Part shown: positions 3,497-39,965 of the stretch, piece after piece | Layout: each line of letters begins with the position of its first letter | Numbering within the stretch: the stretch's first letter is position 1 | UHGV virus genome: UHGV-0185973 | From: a virus | Strand: one strand, 5' to 3' | DNA: 64,000 nucleotides | Position numbers and translations under genes: made by a program | Notes under the pieces: model-generated | The model's input: only the letters and a program-made list of their open reading frames with translations | Told to the model about the DNA's origin: nothing | Databases searched by the model: none

Positions 3497-5314
3497 ATGA
3501 CTAAATCAATCTACGCAGTTCCAGCAGGTCTTAATGCAGATGCCTACAAAGCAGGTCACATCTACCAGTATCCAAGTGCTACACAGTATTTGATGCTGAA
3601 CCTTACACCTCGTGGTGATAAGTGGTTTAACAGCCCCTTAGAAGTTGACGGTGTAGTTGCTTTTGGTATCCAACGTTTTGTAAAAGACTATCTGGTAGAC
3701 CATTGGAATGCAACGTTCTTTGAGCGTGACAAGAAAGAAGCTGTTGATGAAATCTTAGAAGTTATGAATGGTGTACTTGGTGCAGATGCTATTGGTCGTG
3801 AGCATTGGGAAGAACTCCACGATTTAGGGTACTTACCCGTTGCTGTATATTCTGTTGAAGAAGGTATTGTAGTACCAATGCGTGTGCCAATGATTGTCTT
3901 CAAAAATACTGTTGAAGGTTTCCATTGGGTAGCTGGTTATCTGGAAGATGCTTTCTCTGCTGAAATTTGGAAAGCTTGTACCATTGCAACTATTGCGCTG
4001 CACTACAAACGTATCTGTAAGAATTGGGCTGATGTAACCTGTGATAATGACTTCCACTTACCTTGGCAGTGTCATGATTTTGCAATGCGTGGTATGTCTG
4101 GCTTCACAGATGATGCTTTTAATGCTGTAGGTCACTTGACCAGCTTTAAAGGTACTGACAGCTTCCCTGCTGTGTATACTGCTAAACGTGCTTATGGTCA
4201 GTTTATGACAATCAGTGATATTGGCAACTCTGTACCAGCAACTGAACACTCTGTGATGTGTGCAAACATTTCATGGAATAGTACATCTAAAGAAGTTAGT
4301 GATTGGCATCTTATGCAATCTGATAACCTGCTAGATGCAATGCGTTGGCGTGGCGAGGTAGACACTTTCAAACGTCTGTTAGTTGATGTTTATCCAACTG
4401 GTATTGCAAGTGTTGTTTCAGATACTTATAACTTCTGGCGTACTGTTACACAGATTCTACCAGAATTACGCGAAGTCATCCTGAACCGTGATGGTAAGTT
4501 GGTTATCCGTCCAGACTCTGGAGACCCTGTTCACATTGTAACTGGCTACAAAGCTATTGAGTGGGAAACTGCTAAGTCAATGTTCTATAAGCATATGAAG
4601 AGTCTTGCACCTGATAATACTCATCTGCATGATGCAATCTTAAATTGTGAGATGGGTGATATGGGCTTTGGCTTTGCTGCTTGGTTAGTCTCAGAAGGCT
4701 ATGAGATGACAGTTGACAAAGAAGACTTTGACCATGCTGATACAGTTAACCTGATTGCCGCTCAAAAGACTGGACAGTTTACTGTTAAGCGTATGCTGAC
4801 AGCAGAGATTGACGGAGCTATCAAAACTCTGTACAACATCTTTGGAGGCCACGTAAACAGCAAAGGTTACAAAGTACTGGATGAGCATATTGGCTTAATC
4901 TACGGAGATTCTATCACTCTTGAACGTGCTGATGAGATTCTTAAGCGTCTTGCTGAGAAAGGTTTTGCAAGCTCTAACGTAGTGTTTGGCGTAGGTTCTT
5001 ACACTTATCAGTATCTGACTCGTGATACCTTTGCATTTGCTGTTAAGGCTACACTTGCTCAAATGGATGGTGAAGAAATTATGCTGGCAAAAGACCCTAA
5101 AACTGACAGTGGTCTGAAGAAGTCTGCATTTGGTGGTGTAGTTCCAATGTGGGACGGTGATAAACTGGAAGCTGTAGACGGCTTAGGTTTTGCAGAGTTT
5201 GAAGGTGTCATTGATAACCCTCAGTGCGCACTGAAGCTTGTCTTCTGTGACTCACAACCATATGGTTACGTTAACCTTCGTGATGTACGAAAAGTTATTG
5301 ACAACCAGATTTAA
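3497..5314 (+). CDS. nadV: nicotinamide phosphoribosyltransferase-like protein (NadV/Nampt family; possibly Namat-like)
   Basis: 605-aa ORF; called NadV/Nampt-family from overall recognition and adjacency to the Prs-like gene; no single signature motif quoted. Confidence 0.65.
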   Translation: MTKSIYAVPAGLNADAYKAGHIYQYPSATQYLMLNLTPRGDKWFNSPLEVDGVVAFGIQRFVKDYLVDHWNATFFERDKKEAVDEILEVMNGVLGADAIGREHWEELHDLGYLPVAVYSVEEGIVVPMRVPMIVFKNTVEGFHWVAGYLEDAFSAEIWKACTIATIALHYKRICKNWADVTCDNDFHLPWQCHDFAMRGMSGFTDDAFNAVGHLTSFKGTDSFPAVYTAKRAYGQFMTISDIGNSVPATEHSVMCANISWNSTSKEVSDWHLMQSDNLLDAMRWRGEVDTFKRLLVDVYPTGIASVVSDTYNFWRTVTQILPELREVILNRDGKLVIRPDSGDPVHIVTGYKAIEWETAKSMFYKHMKSLAPDNTHLHDAILNCEMGDMGFGFAAWLVSEGYEMTVDKEDFDHADTVNLIAAQKTGQFTVKRMLTAEIDGAIKTLYNIFGGHVNSKGYKVLDEHIGLIYGDSITLERADEILKRLAEKGFASSNVVFGVGSYTYQYLTRDTFAFAVKATLAQMDGEEIMLAKDPKTDSGLKKSAFGGVVPMWDGDKLEAVDGLGFAEFEGVIDNPQCALKLVFCDSQPYGYVNLRDVRKVIDNQI

Positions 5315-34487: not shown

Positions 34488-34835
34488 ATGAAGACTTGTA
34501 TTAGGTGCAAACTTAGCAAGGATGAAAATGATTTCTACATGAAAGATGGTAGGAGAACTCATTCATACTGTAAAAAGTGTGTTAATGAGCAAACCATAGA
34601 AAGACAAAGAGCACTTAAACTTTCAGCTGTTGAGTACAAAGGTGGGGTTTGTCATGATTGTGGTAAAAGGTATCATCCAGCAGTGTATGACTTCCATCAT
34701 TTGAATCCTTCAGAGAAAGATTTTAACATTGGTCATAGAAAAAGTCTTAAGTTCTCTCAGGAGCTAAAGAACGAACTTGACAAATGTGTTTTGCTATGTT
34801 CAAATTGCCATAGGGTAAGACATGCAAAGTATTAG
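34488..34835 (+). CDS. HNH homing endonuclease
   Basis: CxxC zinc pairs (CIRC, CKKC, CHDC) and HNH core DFHHLNPSEKDFNIGHRK...LLCSNCHRVRH. Track ORF starts at 34443 inside the tRNA-like gene; ATG 34488 chosen. Confidence 0.75.
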   Translation: MKTCIRCKLSKDENDFYMKDGRRTHSYCKKCVNEQTIERQRALKLSAVEYKGGVCHDCGKRYHPAVYDFHHLNPSEKDFNIGHRKSLKFSQELKNELDKCVLLCSNCHRVRHAKY

Positions 34836-34972
34836 TTAGCAGATTGCTTAGACGACCTTAACGGGTCTCCTGTAAGGAGGTGGTCTGTATCTCATGTTTC
34901 CAGAGCATGTAAAAATATTCTGAGAAGGGGCTTTACAGTGTTGTGATAATACGGTAAGCTTCGAATTATAAT

Positions 34973-35055
34973 ATGGGACGATGTTAAGACTCTAAGGCAT
35001 GAGCAACGGCTTCCAACACCGTTTCAAAGGGGTTCAACTCCTCCGTCCCATGCCA
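34973..35055 (+). tRNA. atypical tRNA-like gene (anticodon CCA, Trp-like; oversized D region)
   Basis: Perfect acceptor ATGGGAC/GTCCCAT, loop TTCCAAC, T-loop TTCAACT, CCA; 26 nt between acceptor and anticodon stem (normal about 19). Confidence 0.45.
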
Positions 35056-35068
35056 AAGTCTTATTAGG

Positions 35069-35158
35069 GGTAGGTAGCGGCTAATGGTAGCCAAACTGTC
35101 TTGAAAACAGTTGCCACTGTAGAGATACGGTGAGGGTTCGACTCCTTTACTTACCGCC
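35069..35158 (+). tRNA. tRNA-Ser (anticodon TGA), class II
   Basis: Anticodon arm ACTGT-CTTGAAA-ACAGT, long variable arm, acceptor GGTAGGT/ACTTACC. Confidence 0.7.
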
Positions 35159-35406
35159 TAATAAGATTTAAAGCCGCGCTTCGTTCGGATGTTGCGTTAG
35201 GTTTCACTTCGTGTATTGTCGTACACGATGTTGAGAAAGCACCTAGTAGGTGTCACGGAGAAGAGATAGCATCAAGCTCTCCAAAGGTTCTAGTCACCGG
35301 ATTAAACAAGACTATGCAAAGACTGATTAGGTCTTTTTAGATAACTTCTGAGGCAAACTATACCATTGTTGCTTTGGGTCTTGGAAGTTCTCTACAAAGA
35401 TTTAAT

Positions 35407-35483
35407 GCACCTATAGCCCAATTGGAAGAGGCAGCAGACTTAGAATCTGTTCAGTGTGAGTTCGACTCTCTCTAGGTGTACCA
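35407..35483 (+). tRNA. class I tRNA with anticodon TAG (Leu codon CUA; isotype uncertain)
   Basis: Anticodon arm GCAGA-CTTAGAA-TCTGT, 5-nt variable loop, D-loop AATTGGAAGA, discriminator A, CCA. Confidence 0.6.
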
Positions 35484-35490
35484 AATTAAT

Positions 35491-35566
35491 GCAGGTGTAG
35501 CAAAATGGTTATGCGGCTGACTCTTAATCAGTAAGACGATGGGTTCAATTCCCTCCACCTGTACCA
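35491..35566 (+). tRNA. tRNA-Lys (anticodon CTT)
   Basis: Anticodon arm GCTGA-CTCTTAA-TCAGT; T-arm nearly identical to the TTT Lys tRNA; CCA. Confidence 0.65.
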
Positions 35567-35572
35567 AACATT

Positions 35573-35648
35573 GGGGATGTAGTTTACATGGTTAAAACAT
35601 AAGTTTTGCAAACTTAAGTACAGGGTTCAATTCCATGCTTCTCCACCA
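35573..35648 (+). tRNA. tRNA-Ala (anticodon TGC)
   Basis: Anticodon arm TAAGT-TTTGCAA-ACTTA, T-loop TTCAATT, CCA. Confidence 0.75.
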
Positions 35649-35654
35649 ATTAGT

Positions 35655-35729
35655 GCATCCATAGTTTAAACGGGAAAATTACAGTCTTCCAAACTGAGGT
35701 TGAGGGTTCGATTCCCTCTGGATGCTCCA
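35655..35729 (+). tRNA. tRNA-Gly (anticodon TCC)
   Basis: Loop CTTCCAA, T-arm GAGGGTTCGATTCCCTC, acceptor GCATCCA/TGGATGC, CCA. Confidence 0.75.
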
Positions 35730-35735
35730 ATTCAT

Positions 35736-35811
35736 GCTCCTATCGTATAACTGGCTATTACGGTTGTCTTGTAAGCAACTTATCAGGGTTCGAATCCTTG
35801 TGGGAGCACCA
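35736..35811 (+). tRNA. tRNA-Thr (anticodon TGT)
   Basis: Anticodon arm GTTGT-CTTGTAA-GCAAC, T-arm CAGGGTTCGAATCCTTG, CCA. Confidence 0.75.
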
Positions 35812-35905
35812 ATTTGAGGTCAAGTGAAAGACCGCTTGAGTCAACTGAAGACCGTAACAAATTCCACGGAGTTGAGTTAGCGGCACAACTTCAGACCTCT
35901 TTAAA
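35812..35905 (+). ncRNA. candidate structured small RNA between tRNAs
   Basis: About 90 nt with long-range complementarity (GAGGTC 35816-35821 with GACCTC 35893-35898; CTGAAG with CTTCAG) and no ORF or tRNA fold. Confidence 0.3.
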
Positions 35906-35980
35906 GCTCGCTTAGTTTATATGGTAAAGCCCCATCCTTACAAGTTGGTGAAGAAGGTTCAAGTCCTTCAGCGAGTACCA
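35906..35980 (+). tRNA. tRNA-Val (anticodon TAC)
   Basis: Loop CTTACAA, T-arm GAAGGTTCAAGTCCTTC, acceptor GCTCGCT/AGCGAGT, CCA. Confidence 0.75.
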
Positions 35981-35981
35981 A

Positions 35982-36059
35982 GTTCCAGTATCCCAATTGG
36001 CAGAGGATGCAAGCTCAAACCTTGTATTAGTGACGGTTCGAATCCGTCTTGGAACACCA
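35982..36059 (+). tRNA. class I tRNA with anticodon CAA (Leu codon UUG; isotype uncertain)
   Basis: Anticodon arm GCAAG-CTCAAAC-CTTGT, 6-nt variable region, T-arm GACGGTTCGAATCCGTC, discriminator A, CCA. Confidence 0.6.
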
Positions 36060-36076
36060 AATTTTAGGAGATTCCT

Positions 36077-36289
36077 ATGAAGCCTTATGGTAGACACGGT
36101 AAAGTTGAAATTGCAAGTTGTGGTTGCTGTGCTTCTCACGATGGTGAAGAAGATTACTACAAGTGGCGTACAGACCATCGTAGACGCTTTCTCAGAAGAG
36201 ATAAGAAGAAAGCTAGACAGGAATCTCGAAAAGATATTGCAGAATTAGTTCAAATGGATAGAGCAGCAACCTACGAAGTTGTTAGTTAG
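36077..36289 (+). CDS. small hypothetical protein; 3' end overlaps tRNA-Arg
   Basis: AGGAG RBS 6 nt before ATG; Cys-rich N-terminus (CGCC), basic middle; last about 50 nt overlap tRNA-Arg(ACG). Confidence 0.3.
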   Translation: MKPYGRHGKVEIASCGCCASHDGEEDYYKWRTDHRRRFLRRDKKKARQESRKDIAELVQMDRAATYEVVS

Positions 36290-36312
36290 GGGTTCGAATC
36301 CCTTATTCTGCA
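36239..36312 (+). tRNA. tRNA-Arg (anticodon ACG)
   Basis: D-arm GTTCAAATGGATAGAGC, anticodon arm GCAAC-CTACGAA-GTTGT, T-arm AGGGGTTCGAATCCCTT, acceptor GCAGAAT/ATTCTGC; CCA not encoded. Confidence 0.7.
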
Positions 36313-36333
36313 CAAATTTTAGAAGGTAATTAT

Positions 36334-36561
36334 ATGCGTAAACTCATTATTGAAAGGCATAAAGATGCTGACAAGATTGAAACAACACAAGTTGGGGACA
36401 CTGACTTCATTCTTGTAGGTTGGAAATGTGACCCAATAGCAGCTATGAAGGTTGTTCATGGTTTTGCAGGAATTGAATTTAATCAAATCATATTTGAAAC
36501 GCTATTACCAGAAAATCAGGATACGTGTAATAACGCATATATCCTGACAAGAGTTCGTTAG
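36334..36561 (+). CDS. small hypothetical protein within tRNA cluster
   Basis: 75-aa ORF between tRNA genes. Confidence 0.4.
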   Translation: MRKLIIERHKDADKIETTQVGDTDFILVGWKCDPIAAMKVVHGFAGIEFNQIIFETLLPENQDTCNNAYILTRVR

Positions 36562-36635
36562 GGGATTAGTTTACAAGGTTAAAACCTCGGTCTTTGAAAT
36601 CGAAGAAGTTGGTTCAATTCCAACATCCCCCGCCA
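36560..36635 (+). tRNA. tRNA-Gln (anticodon TTG)
   Basis: Anticodon arm TCGGT-CTTTGAA-ATCGA, T-loop TTCAATT, CCA. Confidence 0.7.
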
Positions 36636-36637
36636 AT

Positions 36638-36716
36638 GCTCCATTACTCCAATTGGCAGAGAGGCCAGACTTAAAATCTGTGTTATGTATCGGTTCGAAT
36701 CCGATATGGAGTACCA
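36638..36716 (+). tRNA. class I tRNA with anticodon TAA (Leu codon UUA; isotype uncertain)
   Basis: Anticodon arm CCAGA-CTTAAAA-TCTGT (near-identical to the TAG tRNA), 7-nt variable region, T-arm ATCGGTTCGAATCCGAT, discriminator A, CCA. Confidence 0.6.
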
Positions 36717-36722
36717 AATATT

Positions 36723-36798
36723 AGCAGTGTAGCATAACTGGCAATGCTCCAGCCTCTGAAGCTGAAAGATTAAGGTTCAAATCCTTACACTGCTGCCA
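36723..36798 (+). tRNA. tRNA-Gln (anticodon CTG)
   Basis: Loop CTCTGAA, T-arm TAAGGTTCAAATCCTTA, acceptor AGCAGTG/CACTGCT, CCA. Confidence 0.7.
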
Positions 36799-36829
36799 CT
36801 TCTAAGGGTTCTTACGAGAGTCCTTAAAT

Positions 36830-36906
36830 GTGGCCTTATCATAAATGGATAATGACCCATGCTGTGAACATGGTCTATACGGGTTCGATTCCCGTAGGTC
36901 ACCCCA
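36830..36906 (+). tRNA. tRNA-His (anticodon GTG)
   Basis: Anticodon arm CCATG-CTGTGAA-CATGG, T-arm ACGGGTTCGATTCCCGT, CCA. Confidence 0.75.
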
Positions 36907-36913
36907 ATTTTAA

Positions 36914-36990
36914 TAGCTCAATTAGCTTATATGGTTAAAGCGCGTGTCTGAAAAACATGAGAACAGGGTTCAAATCCCGATGGGCTACCA
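36914..36990 (+). tRNA. tRNA-Phe (anticodon GAA)
   Basis: Anticodon arm CGTGT-CTGAAAA-ACATG, T-loop TTCAAAT, CCA; exact 5' boundary uncertain by 1-2 nt. Confidence 0.65.
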
Positions 36991-37006
36991 ACTTTATAGG
37001 TGCATA

Positions 37007-37741
37007 ATGAAAGAGATGACAGGACAAGGTAAAGAGATTTTCAATCTCCTTAAATCCGGTAACGGGTTCTCTAACCCTCTTATTACTGGTGCAGCAGTTC
37101 TTGGTGGTACAGTTGCTGCTTCTCAGTCATTAATCACTTCAATTAGTTCTGTATCAGACCCAGCTACCCAGCAAATCCTTATTGCTGCTGGCTTGACAAC
37201 TGCCTTACTAAGCAGCTTTACAACAAGCCTTGGTAGCACCACTTCAACGACAACTACTTTAACTGACTATGGACAGAAGTCTGTAGATGAGTTTTCACAG
37301 CGTATGCAGGTAGCCAAAGGATACTCTAATGTTATGGGAGCAGCGGGTGAACAAGTTGGATGTACACCGTTTAGTGGAATCATGGGAGTTGCTACTGAAT
37401 ACGGTAACAAGGCTATGGATTTGATTAACACCTCCATAGATGCCGTAAACAGCGTTCTAAGCGACTTACAGGATGCAATTGATAAAGGACTAGCAACCAT
37501 CTCTGACCTCGCTACACAAGCTGTTACAGCGATTAATGAAGGTATGGCAAAGATTACTGCCTACGCTAATGAAGTGGCTCAGATGATTGCAGACGAAGCA
37601 GCAATGATTGCAGAGTATCTAAAAACCAATATTAATGGTTTCCTTGCAAATGTTTTACCAGATTGGTTTAACGATGATTGTAAGACGGGTGTAATTGATA
37701 CAATTGCAACTCCAGAGATGAAAGAAGCTCTAAACAAATAA
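37007..37741 (+). CDS. hypothetical Ser/Thr-rich protein
   Basis: Start moved to ATG 37007 (AGGTG RBS) because track ORF 36944 begins inside tRNA-Phe. Confidence 0.45.
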   Translation: MKEMTGQGKEIFNLLKSGNGFSNPLITGAAVLGGTVAASQSLITSISSVSDPATQQILIAAGLTTALLSSFTTSLGSTTSTTTTLTDYGQKSVDEFSQRMQVAKGYSNVMGAAGEQVGCTPFSGIMGVATEYGNKAMDLINTSIDAVNSVLSDLQDAIDKGLATISDLATQAVTAINEGMAKITAYANEVAQMIADEAAMIAEYLKTNINGFLANVLPDWFNDDCKTGVIDTIATPEMKEALNK

Positions 37742-37744
37742 TTT

Positions 37745-37837
37745 GGAAGATTAACCCTAAAAGGTAAGGGAGCAGTTTGCTAAACTGCCAGTAGCTGAGA
37801 AATTGGTGTACCAGTTCAAGTCTGGTATCTTCCTCCA
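37745..37837 (+). tRNA. tRNA-Ser (anticodon GCT), class II
   Basis: Acceptor GGAAGAT/ATCTTCC, anticodon arm GCAGT-TTGCTAA-ACTGC, long variable arm, CCA. Confidence 0.75.
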
Positions 37838-37843
37838 AATTTT

Positions 37844-37919
37844 GCATTGGTGTCAGAAATGGATATGTACCTGTCTGCAAAACAGGTTTATGAGGGTTCG
37901 AGTCCCTTCCAATGCTCCA
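37844..37919 (+). tRNA. tRNA-Cys (anticodon GCA)
   Basis: Anticodon arm CCTGT-CTGCAAA-ACAGG, T-arm GAGGGTTCGAGTCCCTT, acceptor GCATTGG/CCAATGC, CCA. Confidence 0.75.
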
Positions 37920-37953
37920 ATTTACTTTAATATCTCTCTCTCAAAGTATATAT

Positions 37954-38014
37954 GCCCTGCTATGAGTATTCTCCCTTTCGCTACCGGAGAGTATTTTTAG
38001 ACAGGGCTTTTTTA
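37954..38014 (+). terminator. compound rho-independent terminator ending the tRNA cluster
   Basis: Nested stems (GCCCTG...CAGGGC and TCTCC...GGAGA) each followed by T-runs. Confidence 0.6.
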
Positions 38015-38079
38015 TAGAGTTATACTTTATAGGAAAGACCTATACAGTATGTCTCTGACATACATTGTGGTTTCTCCTT

Positions 38080-38104
38080 GACGGTCTCTGCGCCGTCTTT
38101 TTTC
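38080..38104 (+). terminator. rho-independent terminator
   Basis: GACGG-tctctgcg-CCGTC followed by TTTTTT. Confidence 0.6.
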
Positions 38105-38141
38105 AGGGGAACCATTAACTTATTATCTTTGGAGAAATACA

Positions 38142-38342
38142 ATGAACGAGACTAACATTTATAAAGATTTTTACGAAGCACAGCAGCAAGTTAATCTGCT
38201 GAAAAATACTATCATGTCTATTGCTGAACGTCTAATTACGGCTACCGGTATTAAACCAGAAGAAGCAACAATGGACAGTCTTCTTGATGCTGTAGATGCC
38301 AAGTTTGGTGTATGTAAAGAAGAAGAAGCTAAACCTGAATAA
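38142..38342 (+). CDS. small hypothetical protein upstream of terminase (possible small terminase-associated protein)
   Basis: 66-aa acidic ORF with GGAG RBS, directly before the large terminase gene. Confidence 0.4.
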   Translation: MNETNIYKDFYEAQQQVNLLKNTIMSIAERLITATGIKPEEATMDSLLDAVDAKFGVCKEEEAKPE

Positions 38343-38363
38343 TTCTATTTGCAGAGGTGCTTA

Positions 38364-39965
38364 ATGGATTTAAATGCTATTAAGCAGAAGCGAGTGGAAG
38401 ATGTAAGGAAAGTCCTAGCTGGAGAGTTGGGGCTTTCTGAAGAAGTAAAAGAAATTATCAAATCATTTGGTAAAGACCCGTCTAAATTCCTTCCTACTCA
38501 GATTCTGACTTTATTAAGATATTCACCAGACCAAGTAAGACTCATCTTTAAATTGATGACTGACAAGAACTACGTAGCTCCACAGCCTGGGTCTCAGGAA
38601 GTATTCTTGAACACTAATGCTGACTTGGTGCTATATGGTGGTGCTGCTGGTGCTGGTAAAACGGCTGCCCTTTTAATGGACTCATTACGATTCATTGAAG
38701 ACCCTAACTATAATGCTGTATATTTCCGTCGAAATACTACGCAGCTACAAGGGGGTTTATGGCCTGCTGCTAAAAAGCTATTTGGTAAGTTTGGTGGTAC
38801 TCCACACGAACAGAAAATGACTATTACATTCCCTTCAGGAGCTACTATTAAGTTTACTTACTTGGAACTTGAAAAACACTCAGAAGGTCACCAAGGGATT
38901 GAATACTCTGCTATCTACTTTGACGAAGGTACACACTTCTCAGCTTCACAGATTTCATATCTGCAAACACGTTTACGTTCTGGTGCTGAAGGTGACTCAT
39001 ACATGAAGATTTCTATGAACCCTGATAGAGACCACTTCATCTATGATTGGGTAGAACCTTTCCTTGATGAAGACGGTTATCCAGACCCTGACAAGTGCGG
39101 TAGAATTCGTTGGTATGTTATGAATGATGGTGTGATGGTTTCTGATTGGGACAGAGATAAGATTCTCGAAATGTTTCCTCTTGAGATTCCTCAAACATAT
39201 ACCTTCATTTCTGGTACAATTGATGATAACCCAATCCTTGACTTCTTGGAGCCTAAGTATCGTGGTAAGCTTGAAAACAACACTCCAGTTAACGTAGCAA
39301 GACTTCGTTTTGGTAACTGGAAAGCTCGTGCTGAAGGTTCTAACTATTGGCAAAGGCAATGGTGTGAGATTGTTGACAGTGTTCCACCAGATATCTTTGA
39401 TGTTCGAGCATGGGACTTAGCGGCTACTTTACCATCTGAAGTCAACCCTAACCCTGACTGGACAGCGGGTGTCAGAATGGCTAAATCTAAAAAAGATGGT
39501 TGCTATTATGTCATGAACGTAGTAAGATTTAGGGATAGACCTTCTGGAGTCGAGACACAAATTAACTTGACTGCTGAAAGCGACGGTAAGCGCACAGGTA
39601 TTTTTATCCCTCAAGACCCCGGCGCTGCTGGTAAATCCTACGCAACATCCCTTATCAGAAAGCTTGCTGAGAAAGGCTACAGAGCAAGAGCAAAACCAAC
39701 AAACAAAGATAAAGTCACCCGTTTTGCGGGTTTCTCTGCTGCTTCTGAAGCAGGATTGGTTAAGATTGTCAGAGGTAGCTGGAACGAAGCTTACTTCCAA
39801 GAACTAGAAGGTTTTTGTGGAGATGGTAAGACCAAGGATGACCAAGTGGATGCTACAAGTGATGCTTTCAACAGTCTCAATGAGGTAAAACTGTTTAAGC
39901 CACCTTCAATGGGAACTCACACAGATTTAGTGAGAAATAACCCTTATGAGGGACTTAGACGCTAA
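38364..39965 (+). CDS. terminase large subunit
   Basis: Walker A VLYGGAAGAGKT and Walker B-like AIYFDEG; C-terminal nuclease-size domain; start at ATG 38364 (track ORF begins TTG at 38349). Confidence 0.8.
   Translation: MDLNAIKQKRVEDVRKVLAGELGLSEEVKEIIKSFGKDPSKFLPTQILTLLRYSPDQVRLIFKLMTDKNYVAPQPGSQEVFLNTNADLVLYGGAAGAGKTAALLMDSLRFIEDPNYNAVYFRRNTTQLQGGLWPAAKKLFGKFGGTPHEQKMTITFPSGATIKFTYLELEKHSEGHQGIEYSAIYFDEGTHFSASQISYLQTRLRSGAEGDSYMKISMNPDRDHFIYDWVEPFLDEDGYPDPDKCGRIRWYVMNDGVMVSDWDRDKILEMFPLEIPQTYTFISGTIDDNPILDFLEPKYRGKLENNTPVNVARLRFGNWKARAEGSNYWQRQWCEIVDSVPPDIFDVRAWDLAATLPSEVNPNPDWTAGVRMAKSKKDGCYYVMNVVRFRDRPSGVETQINLTAESDGKRTGIFIPQDPGAAGKSYATSLIRKLAEKGYRARAKPTNKDKVTRFAGFSAASEAGLVKIVRGSWNEAYFQELEGFCGDGKTKDDQVDATSDAFNSLNEVKLFKPPSMGTHTDLVRNNPYEGLRR

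Follow-up and report, generated by a model that had tools for sequence, protein, structure and literature searches.

The viral genome UHGV-0185973, analyzed here as a 64,000-nucleotide (nt) stretch of DNA (the window), encodes three leucine transfer RNAs (tRNAs) with the anticodons UAG, CAA and UAA, none of which has the long variable arm that is the textbook hallmark of bacterial tRNA-Leu. The three are genuine tRNA genes of the type I (armless) leucine family and are under selection, and the arm is absent from all three Leu tRNAs throughout a large and well-sampled group of coliphages and Salmonella phages. Our preferred explanation, which we consider probable, is that they are working phage leucine tRNAs of type I, charged by the host's leucyl-tRNA synthetase (LeuRS), which supply codons over-used by the phage and belong to an old armless lineage.

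We called tRNA genes with ARAGORN over the whole window and with the Rfam covariance model RF00005 (Infernal; gathering score of 29 bits), and a permissive Rfam tRNA scan covered positions 32000-38500. The initial annotation of this DNA had described three class I tRNAs with the anticodons TAG, CAA and TAA, while allowing for a register error in its manual fold. ARAGORN returned exactly the same outer coordinates and called the genes Leu(tag), Leu(caa) and Leu(taa), RF00005 matched each of them over the full length of the tRNA model (model positions 1-71), and the anticodon-loop register was identical in the Rfam alignments and in ARAGORN for all three. A register error or a wrong anticodon is rejected by this agreement. 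The genes are 77 nt (UAG), 78 nt (CAA) and 79 nt (UAA) long, including an encoded CCA end, and have variable loops of 5 nt (UCAGU), 6 nt (AUUAGU) and 7 nt (GUUAUGU), respectively. A variable-arm helix is absent from the ARAGORN drawings and from our own parse of all three genes, which are thus unlike class II tRNAs with their helical arm of more than 10 nt. The CAA gene begins 1 nt past a tRNA-Val gene and forms 20 of 20 stem pairs; the UAG tRNA has a G1·U72 pair and a single U·U mismatch in the T stem, and the UAA tRNA has a C27·U43 mismatch topping the anticodon stem. Common to the three are U8, A14, A15, G18G19, the T-loop sequence UUCGA, a D stem of 3 base pairs (bp) with a C13·A22 mismatch, the D-loop AAUUGG(A/C)AG and A73, so that the related D-loops and the shared discriminator base noticed initially were recovered in the parse of each gene. 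No further Leu tRNA, long-arm or other, was found by ARAGORN across the 64 kb or by the permissive Rfam scan; a hidden long-arm gene elsewhere in the window is thereby rejected, and the earlier statement that the cluster holds no class II Leu tRNA stands.

By sequence similarity, the window is a Felix O1-like phage (Ounavirinae). The region matches 260 phage records at 80-96% identity, which belong to Felix O1-like myoviruses (Felixounavirus, Mooglevirus and other Ounavirinae) of Escherichia, Salmonella, Shigella and Citrobacter and annotate 'tRNA-Leu (x3)' at the corresponding place. Of 264 matching records, 216 have a UAA tRNA of 99% identity or more, while identity in the flanking 2.1 kb is mostly 80-95%, and all 76 Leu tRNAs across 28 Felix O1-like loci are 77-79 nt long. 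The UAG slot is occupied by two strongly divergent alleles, both armless, and the anticodon stem of the Felix O1-type allele occurs as CCAUC/GUUGG, UCUCG/CGAGA and CCUCG/CGAGG, which amounts to multiple double compensatory changes. The near-identity of the UAA tRNA against its surroundings, the constant length and the compensatory stem swaps indicate, at the level of sequence comparison, that purifying selection acts on the Leu tRNAs of Felix O1-like phages. Decaying pseudogenes or prediction artefacts might have been suspected from the single mismatches in two of the three genes and from Rfam scores of 44-54 bits, which are at the low end within the cluster. However, both predictors agree, conservation is near-perfect over more than 250 genomes, and the compensatory stem changes, the encoded CCA and the large coherent family found elsewhere (see below) make this explanation scarcely credible.

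Two side observations concern these loci. In Felix O1-like IMG/VR contigs, the UAG slot carries either the allele of the window (GCACCUAUAGCCC...) or the allele of most Felixounavirus genomes (GGGAGAUUGACGG...), a distribution that suggests allele replacement through recombination. In one Felix O1-like IMG/VR contig, the first 13 nt of the UAA tRNA are those of the CAA tRNA; this hybrid is either a recombinant between paralogues or an assembly artefact.

Apart from the arm, the three tRNAs have the features of a canonical tRNA-Leu, namely a leucine anticodon, A73 and a Leu-type D arm (3-bp stem, A14 A15 .. G18 G19. A20a). The leucine identity set of E. coli consists of A73, U8-A14, A15-U48, G18G19, A20a and the D/T tertiary pairs (PMC9976931). 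It is wholly present in all three phage genes, including U48 as the final base of the variable loop, and the pairs G18:U55, G19:C56 and U54:A58 can form in each of them, as in a LeuRS substrate. Likewise, all three have the makeup of a type I tRNA-Leu: the body is of class I and bears a leucine anticodon, the variable loops measure 5, 6 and 7 nt with U48 at their end, and U8-A14 is present together with an intact D/T elbow (G18G19, UUCGA). In a 2025 study of the Shigella phage Sf14, the Leu isotype model of tRNAscan-SE ranked first for all three homologous tRNAs (TAG 67.4, CAA 49.1 and TAA 60.2), which were graded as 'consistent' with the anticodon; the paper makes no mention of the variable arm (PMC12482277). 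The Sf14 tRNA-Leu(CAA) is identical to the window gene, tRNA-Leu(TAA) differs from it by 1 nt in the anticodon loop, and tRNA-Leu(TAG) differs by 3 nt, one of the changes turning G27·U43 into G-C.

The initial annotation had offered two readings, structurally atypical Leu tRNAs or tRNAs charged with another amino acid. The Leu features outside the anticodon and the top Leu scores of the Sf14 homologues speak for the former. The latter, which would entail a partial recoding of UUA, UUG and CUA, could draw on the class I body, since this is what synthetases other than those for Leu and Ser expect, and on the Sf14 UAG tRNA, for which the Ile2, Lys and Arg isotype scores lie near the Leu score (PMC12482277). 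However, the synthetases for Ile, Lys, Arg and other amino acids depend on their own anticodons, which are absent here. The G3:U70 pair recognized by alanyl-tRNA synthetase is also lacking, as position 3:70 is A-U, U-A and U-A in the three genes, and seryl-tRNA synthetase (SerRS) would find neither a long arm nor G73, which is replaced by A73. Moreover, host tRNAs decode the same codons as Leu, and any other charge would result in ambiguous decoding. In a decoding test, we aligned the window terminase with six homologues that share 31-41% identity and come from unrelated phages infecting Pseudomonas, Acinetobacter, Vibrio, Escherichia and Rheinheimera. At the positions of TTA, TTG and CTA codons, the six homologues have Leu in 36% and one of L/I/V/M/F in 69% of cases, compared to 45% and 71% at other Leu codons and to a background of 7% and 27%. 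The proteome contains 7.7% Leu, a share that would drop to 3.6% without TTA, TTG and CTA. The anticodons read sense Leu codons that align with Leu in homologues, and are not those of suppressor or recoding tRNAs. Since TTA, TTG and CTA and the remaining Leu codons align with Leu about equally well, recoding is not supported by these alignments, and charging with a different amino acid appears very improbable.

The leucine codons of the 78 window open reading frames (ORFs) are divided among TTA (25%), TTG (16%), CTT (27%), CTC (5%), CTA (11%) and CTG (15%), so that 53% of them (UUA, UUG and CUA together) are served directly by the phage tRNAs. The published median relative synonymous codon usage (RSCU) values for host and Sf14 phage are 0.71 and 1.56 for TTA and 0.16 and 0.63 for CTA, respectively (both p<0.001; PMC12482277).

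The armless Leu tRNAs of the window are not confined to their own phage group. The UAG tRNA has ungapped matches of about 80% identity, equally short, to annotated tRNA-Leu genes of many phages. ARAGORN confirmed Leu tRNAs of 75-78 nt in Cronobacter phage CR8 (Vequintavirinae), Erwinia phage phiEa104 (Ounavirinae), Mycobacterium phage Cali, Streptomyces phage Jay2Jay, Synechococcus phage BUCT-ZZ01, Bacillus phage P59, Enterococcus phage TJE2 and Lactobacillus phage Bacchae; the armless Leu family is present in phages of four host phyla. We searched further with a structural pattern consisting of the leucine D-loop AATTGGNAGA, the anticodon loop YTNANR, 14-18 nt and GTTCRANNC. In viral contigs, 120 of the 124 matches listed are tRNA-Leu by ARAGORN, 74-79 nt long and with all six leucine anticodons among them, and none of the matches listed is a Val, Ile, Met or Phe tRNA, although the pattern (NAN) permitted these. 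The 109 unique viral armless Leu tRNAs among the matches listed have A73 (109 of 109) and U48 (108 of 109), two positions that the pattern leaves free. Their stem cells are 97.9% paired, compared to about 45% with shifted partners and for a stem parser that demanded at least 17 of 20 pairs, and 2-6 pair types occur at nearly every position. With the spacer widened to 14-36 nt, 102 of the 120 viral stretches listed contained a long-arm Leu tRNA (81-91 nt) and 18 an armless one. This share of roughly one in seven (~15%) comes from a rough sample that covers the AATTGG D-loop motif only and in which some contigs may include host DNA.

In bacterial and archaeal genomes, the armless pattern gave at least 120 matches, in two contexts. 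The first consists of dense tRNA arrays (17-34 tRNAs per 8 kb) in cyanobacteria, Acidobacteriota, Polyangia and others, where, among the matches listed, Leu is short in 53 of 58 cases and Ser (26/26) and Tyr (10/10) are always long. A Rhodocyclaceae metagenome-assembled genome is among the carriers of such arrays with armless Leu and long-arm Ser and Tyr. The second context is that of high-GC Actinobacteria (Nocardia, Rhodococcus, Gordonia, Mycobacterium, Corynebacterium, Arthrobacter, Bifidobacterium and Rothia), where at least 84 solitary armless Leu genes, for the most part UAA and CAA, were found. These genes are GC-rich, identical inside genera and distinguished by compensatory changes between genera, and they lie in synteny from genus to genus next to the housekeeping genes for Ppx/GppA (with DUF501), for a pyridine-nucleotide oxidoreductase and for an ANTAR response regulator. 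Prophage cargo is rejected on the grounds of this GC content, within-genus identity and housekeeping synteny, and the genomic comparison identifies the solitary genes as native chromosomal ones. The UAG anticodon also occurs among the apparently native actinobacterial armless tRNA-Leu genes. Native armless tRNA-Leu across many actinobacterial genera extends far beyond the single published case of Streptomyces coelicolor, which was called rare. The premise of the initial annotation that bacterial and phage tRNA-Leu is normally class II therefore holds for E. coli, T4 and T5, and does not hold generally, as armless forms occur frequently among viral contigs and belong to the native genes of Actinobacteria.

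The armless genes also share a signature, derived in the present analysis as a criterion of kinship. The C13·A22 mismatch is found in 3 of 3 window genes and, among the matches listed, in 96 of 109 viral armless and 99 of 99 genomic armless Leu tRNAs, compared to 0 of 104 viral class II Leu tRNAs, which have G·A or A·A at 13:22 and never C·A. The core identity of the window Leu tRNAs averages 0.60-0.73 to the armless sets and 0.48-0.59 to long-arm viral or E. coli Leu tRNAs. Based on this signature and the closer core identity, sequence analysis places the window genes in a coherent lineage of armless tRNA-Leu. The same two observations reject a recent deletion from a host-like gene, and so does a blastn search in which the window UAG tRNA had no match in 5,426 complete E. 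coli genomes.

We propose that the three Leu tRNAs would be transcribed within a cluster of 25 tRNA genes with their CCA end already encoded, processed, and then charged with leucine by the host LeuRS, which recognizes A73 and how the D-loop/T-loop corner is shaped and reads neither the anticodon nor a long arm. The UAA tRNA would read UUA and UUG, the CAA tRNA UUG, and the UAG tRNA CUA and CUG. In this way, the phage tRNAs would supplement the minor, single-copy UUA, UUG and CUA decoders of the host during expression of an AT-rich phage genome that appears to use these codons far more than the host does. The missing arm would then be no recent deletion but a trait of an old lineage, which is native to Actinobacteria and travels among phages and mobile tRNA arrays. 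In a neutral view, if the arm is dispensable for LeuRS, the compact lineage may simply persist and spread with mobile tRNA clusters.

Given the identity elements of the phage Leu tRNAs, we consider it most likely that they are charged by the E. coli-type LeuRS. According to a review of tRNA identity, E. coli LeuRS requires neither the anticodon nor the long arm, and deletion of the arm in E. coli tRNA-Leu is tolerated (PMC9976931). Several observations, however, weigh against the proposal that these are working, host-charged leucine tRNAs. The anticodon loop of the UAG tRNA is CUUAGAA compared to UUUAGGU in the host, with A37 in place of the host G37. In the CAA tRNA, C38 replaces the host A38 and thereby disrupts the A36A37A38 motif that the UAA tRNA retains. 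In E. coli, the m1G modification falls on G37, and MiaA and TrmL use the A36A37A38 motif. Because of A37 in the UAG tRNA and C38 in the CAA tRNA, host modification of the phage Leu tRNAs may therefore differ. The T-stem mismatch of the UAG tRNA and the anticodon-stem mismatch of the UAA tRNA are further irregularities. For the Sf14 TAG tRNA, the Leu isotype score is barely above Ile2 (65.7) and Lys (63.4), and the RSCU of TTG does not differ between host and Sf14 phage, so that over-use by the phage, a check proposed with the initial annotation, applies to UUA and CUA and not to UUG (PMC12482277). Finally, E. coli LeuRS at 1 nM gave no charging of the S. coelicolor type I tRNA-Leu(CAA), and the same study describes the E. 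coli enzyme as charging type II tRNA-Leu only and reports that a Streptomyces LeuRS from the E. coli branch also failed on the type I tRNA (Fan et al., 2019; PMC6614811).

This negative result, the sole direct biochemical assay of a natural type I tRNA-Leu with E. coli LeuRS, is what lends weight to the alternative that enterobacterial LeuRS is unable to charge the phage molecules, which would then be uncharged tRNA-like RNAs acting as defense decoys, stringent-response regulators or processing signals. In the same work, E. coli LeuRS charged the long-arm tRNA-Leu of Streptomyces at about 50% activity (PMC6614811). The E. coli enzyme favors the pair A15-U48. It is a matter of speculation that C48 in the Streptomyces tRNA, compared to U48 in the phage tRNAs, accounts for the failure of the E. 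coli enzyme, in which case the result may not carry over. We regard the uncharged-RNA alternative as quite unlikely: selection keeps exactly the features on which charging and decoding depend (A73, U48, the CCA end and leucine anticodons of three kinds), the anticodons match codons over-used by the phage, E. coli LeuRS reportedly tolerates deletion of the arm from its own tRNA, and without a general role in translation it is hard to account for a family that occurs in phages of four host phyla.

Within the window cluster, the armless state is restricted to Leu, as both tRNA-Ser and the tRNA-Tyr keep their arms. The same holds more widely, since the viral stretches listed with armless Leu have long Ser in 90 of 90 and long Tyr in 32 of 36 cases. 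Bacterial tyrosyl-tRNA synthetase (TyrRS) makes use of the variable arm. SerRS needs the long arm, and G73 is an antideterminant for LeuRS (PMC9976931). Arm loss in Leu only thus fits synthetase logic, because SerRS needs the arm, TyrRS uses it and E. coli LeuRS is reported to do without it.

An explanation compatible with host charging and codon supply is that the armless shape is itself adaptive, as it would offer no handle or cleavage site to the tRNA-directed toxins and nucleases of the host. The PtuAB nuclease of Septu and Retron-Eco7 cuts E. coli tRNA-Tyr within the variable arm, and the tRNA-Tyr of T5 and SP15, which has a different arm, resists. Similarly, the toxin MenT3 anchors on the long arm of tRNA-Ser, and whether a tRNA-Leu is hit depends on how long its arm is and how it is oriented. 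Armless Leu tRNAs are enriched in mobile contexts, i.e., in phages and in tRNA arrays, which one paper terms a putative antidefense system, and the anticodon loops of the phage tRNAs differ from those of the host, as has been proposed for nuclease evasion (PMC10264068). However, our literature search retrieved no nuclease or toxin directed against the tRNA-Leu arm; tRNA-Tyr, the tRNA with a known arm-directed attack, retains its arm in the window phage; the native housekeeping armless tRNA-Leu of Actinobacteria implies that the shape needs no defense rationale; and T4 and T5 cope with long-arm Leu tRNAs. Bacterial Schlafens were considered as arm-directed nucleases and set aside as irrelevant, as the respective paper shows cleavage of class I tRNAs in the anticodon arm. 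By analogy with these systems, an adaptive value of the shape is conceivable but rather doubtful. A fuller version, in which the window genes represent a distinct mobile-element armless lineage that spreads horizontally, whose arm loss was selected for immunity to arm-directed toxins or nucleases and which enterobacterial LeuRS charges efficiently and independently of the arm, we judge to be unlikely.

E. coli LeuRS has been reported to leave a natural type I tRNA-Leu uncharged, yet three such tRNAs are conserved in more than 250 genomes of enterobacterial phages. Either E. coli LeuRS accepts these tRNAs, in which case its stated specificity is to be revised and compact tRNA-Leu scaffolds may become available for engineering, or the tRNAs have a non-translational role. 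Arm-independent charging, if true, would contradict the published claim that the E. coli enzyme is restricted to type II substrates. The case also bears on the debate over whether phage tRNAs serve codon supply or escape from tRNA-targeting immunity. If arm loss does confer immunity, it would constitute a second structural route of phage tRNA counter-defense beside mutation of the anticodon loop, and would predict a yet-undiscovered defense activity that recognizes the arm of tRNA-Leu. Independent of the outcome, tRNA length or presence of an arm is unsafe as an isotype filter in phage annotation.

The window has a GC content of 39%, and its downstream ORFs include terminase, portal, tape measure, baseplate and tail fiber genes. 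A synthetase was not found among the nine window ORFs of at least 450 amino acids (aa), the window omitting part of the ~88-kb genome. Default ARAGORN found 23 tRNA genes in the 64 kb, all on the plus strand and within the cluster that holds the three Leu genes (Table 1). tRNA-Glu(ttc) and tRNA-Tyr(gta), the latter with an Rfam score of 22.8 bits and thus under the threshold, were added by ARAGORN with relaxed threshold or by Rfam, which brings the cluster to 25 genes. The gene order equals that of the annotated Sf14 cluster. A promoter and terminator scan gave sites no more numerous than in shuffled sequence; the promoter-like sites at 32568-32597, 34038-34066 and 34943-34972 are accordingly not above chance in number.

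Table 1. Leucine tRNA genes of the window and the other tRNA features of the cluster.
Feature	Coordinates	Strand	Basis and remarks
Type I (armless) tRNA-Leu(UAG)	35407..35483	+	ARAGORN; Rfam 54.1 bits
Type I tRNA-Leu(CAA)	35982..36059	+	ARAGORN; Rfam 44.0 bits
Type I tRNA-Leu(UAA)	36638..36716	+	ARAGORN; Rfam 47.5 bits
tRNA cluster holding the three Leu genes	32625..37919	+	ARAGORN and Rfam; 25 tRNA genes, many spaced 1-9 nt
tRNA-Glu(ttc)	32709-32783	+	Rfam 53.7 bits; missed by default ARAGORN; annotated in the same Sf14 slot
tRNA-Tyr(GUA), 88 nt, short variable-arm helix	33114..33201	+	Relaxed ARAGORN; tRNA-Tyr annotated in the same Sf14 slot
tRNA-Ser(UGA), 90 nt, long variable arm	35069..35158	+	ARAGORN
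tRNA-Ser(GCU), 93 nt, long variable arm	37745..37837	+	ARAGORN

The cluster and its surroundings contain several other elements. At 34391-34472 (+), in the slot where Sf14 carries a normal tRNA-Arg(TCT), lies an 82-nt tRNA-like element that scores 31.7 bits with the Rfam tRNA model and in which ARAGORN finds nothing. It has an anticodon stem-loop that resembles that of Arg(UCU) (GCGGU-CUUCUAA-ACCGC), a good acceptor stem containing G3·U70, a T arm and CCA, lacks a proper D arm and has about 23 nt ahead of the T stem. The element is 97-99% conserved among Felix O1 and its relatives, where an annotated HNH endonuclease covers or adjoins it. Since its fold does no better than that of shuffled sequence (z = 0.04), no case for a structured RNA arises from folding; the element probably represents the remnant of a tRNA, tied to homing-endonuclease activity. 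A weak tRNA-like match at 33450-33513 (+; Rfam 26.9 bits, below threshold), which relaxed ARAGORN draws as a poor 'tRNA-His(atg)' containing several mismatches, may be a further decayed tRNA. A weak match to the Y RNA-like YrlA of Rfam that overlaps tRNA-His/Phe at 36852-36976 (21.5 bits, E = 0.56) probably reflects mere tRNA similarity. Two small ORFs, both on the plus strand, lie between tRNA genes. The one at 36078-36254 (MKPYGRHGKVEIASCGCCASHDGEEDYYKWRTDHRRRF...) encodes a Cys-rich and then very basic product, overlaps the 5' end of tRNA-Arg(ACG) and has its stop codon within that tRNA, and the one at 36335-36560 lies between tRNA-Arg and tRNA-Gln. Immediately 5' of the cluster, a gene at 31044-32459 (+) encodes a 471-aa protein with DUF2828 and DUF7788 domains, which has the same position in Sf14 (gp25). 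Farther upstream, at 3497-5314 (+), a 605-aa protein of the nicotinamide/nicotinate phosphoribosyltransferase family (NAPRTase, E = 1e-31) represents a phage NAD-salvage gene.

Structurally, the window genes are of a known but little-noticed kind, the type I bacterial tRNA-Leu, and they have long been annotated as tRNA-Leu with a probably ordinary function. A literature search found no description of armless tRNA-Leu in phages, nor a citation of Fan et al. (2019) in that context, and armless tRNA-Leu in phages, specifically in phages of hosts with an E. coli-type LeuRS, appears to be unreported. Among the closest described systems is the type I tRNA-Leu(CAA) of S. coelicolor, which has a 5-nt loop (ACAGC) and is charged by the single LeuRS of this organism. 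Its charging needs at least five loop nucleotides including nt 48 and is conferred by the leucine-specific domain of the S. coelicolor LeuRS; human mitochondrial LeuRS charges it too, and the authors called the mechanism rare, with phages unmentioned (PMC6614811). Like this tRNA, the phage Leu tRNAs are armless, have a normal D/T elbow and U8-A14, satisfy the minimum of five loop nucleotides with their loops of 5, 6 and 7 nt, and coexist with long-arm tRNAs; related native actinobacterial genes share C13·A22 and an xxAGU-type loop with the window UAG tRNA. In contrast to the window genes, the S. coelicolor tRNA is chromosomal, has C48, is matched by a LeuRS adapted in its leucine-specific domain and is one of five Leu tRNAs, whereas all Leu tRNAs of the window phage are armless and its hosts have an E. 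coli-type LeuRS. The MenT3 paper implies that two of the five tRNA-Leu of Mycobacterium tuberculosis are likewise without the long loop. A tRNA-Leu(TAG) with a short variable loop was remarked upon in one sentence for a mycobacterial mobile tRNA cluster (Behra et al., 2019; PMC6582537). As in the window, an armless Leu(UAG) lies there in a tRNA cluster, which is horizontally mobile and has an HNH endonuclease gene; the case differs in that it concerns a bacterial genome, which also has a normal long-arm chromosomal Leu copy, and the paper draws no link to phages or synthetase compatibility (PMC6582537).

The other known systems resemble the window genes in part. The E. coli isoacceptors leuW (UAG), leuX (CAA) and leuZ (UAA) share with them the anticodons, A73, the 3-bp D stem and the D-loop A14 A15 U16 Y17 G18 G19 N A20a G21. 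They differ in length (85-87 nt, with variable arms of 13-15 nt), such that the phage genes lack 8-10 nt exactly at the arm, as well as in core identity to the phage tRNAs (0.42-0.62), in the flanks of the anticodon loop and at 13:22, which is G·A or A·A compared to C·A in the phage. T4 tRNA-Leu(UAA) and T5 tRNA-Leu(UAG) are, like those of the window, coliphage Leu tRNAs in clusters with homing endonuclease genes, but both are long-arm tRNAs (87 and 85 nt, respectively); the T5 tRNA has a record of amber-suppressor activity once its anticodon was replaced. Animal mitochondrial tRNA-Leu(UUR) is of class I and has A73 and A14 as identity elements, as is the case for the phage tRNAs. In contrast to the weak, floppy cores of the mitochondrial tRNAs, however, the phage tRNAs have the canonical G18G19 and a UUCGA T-loop.

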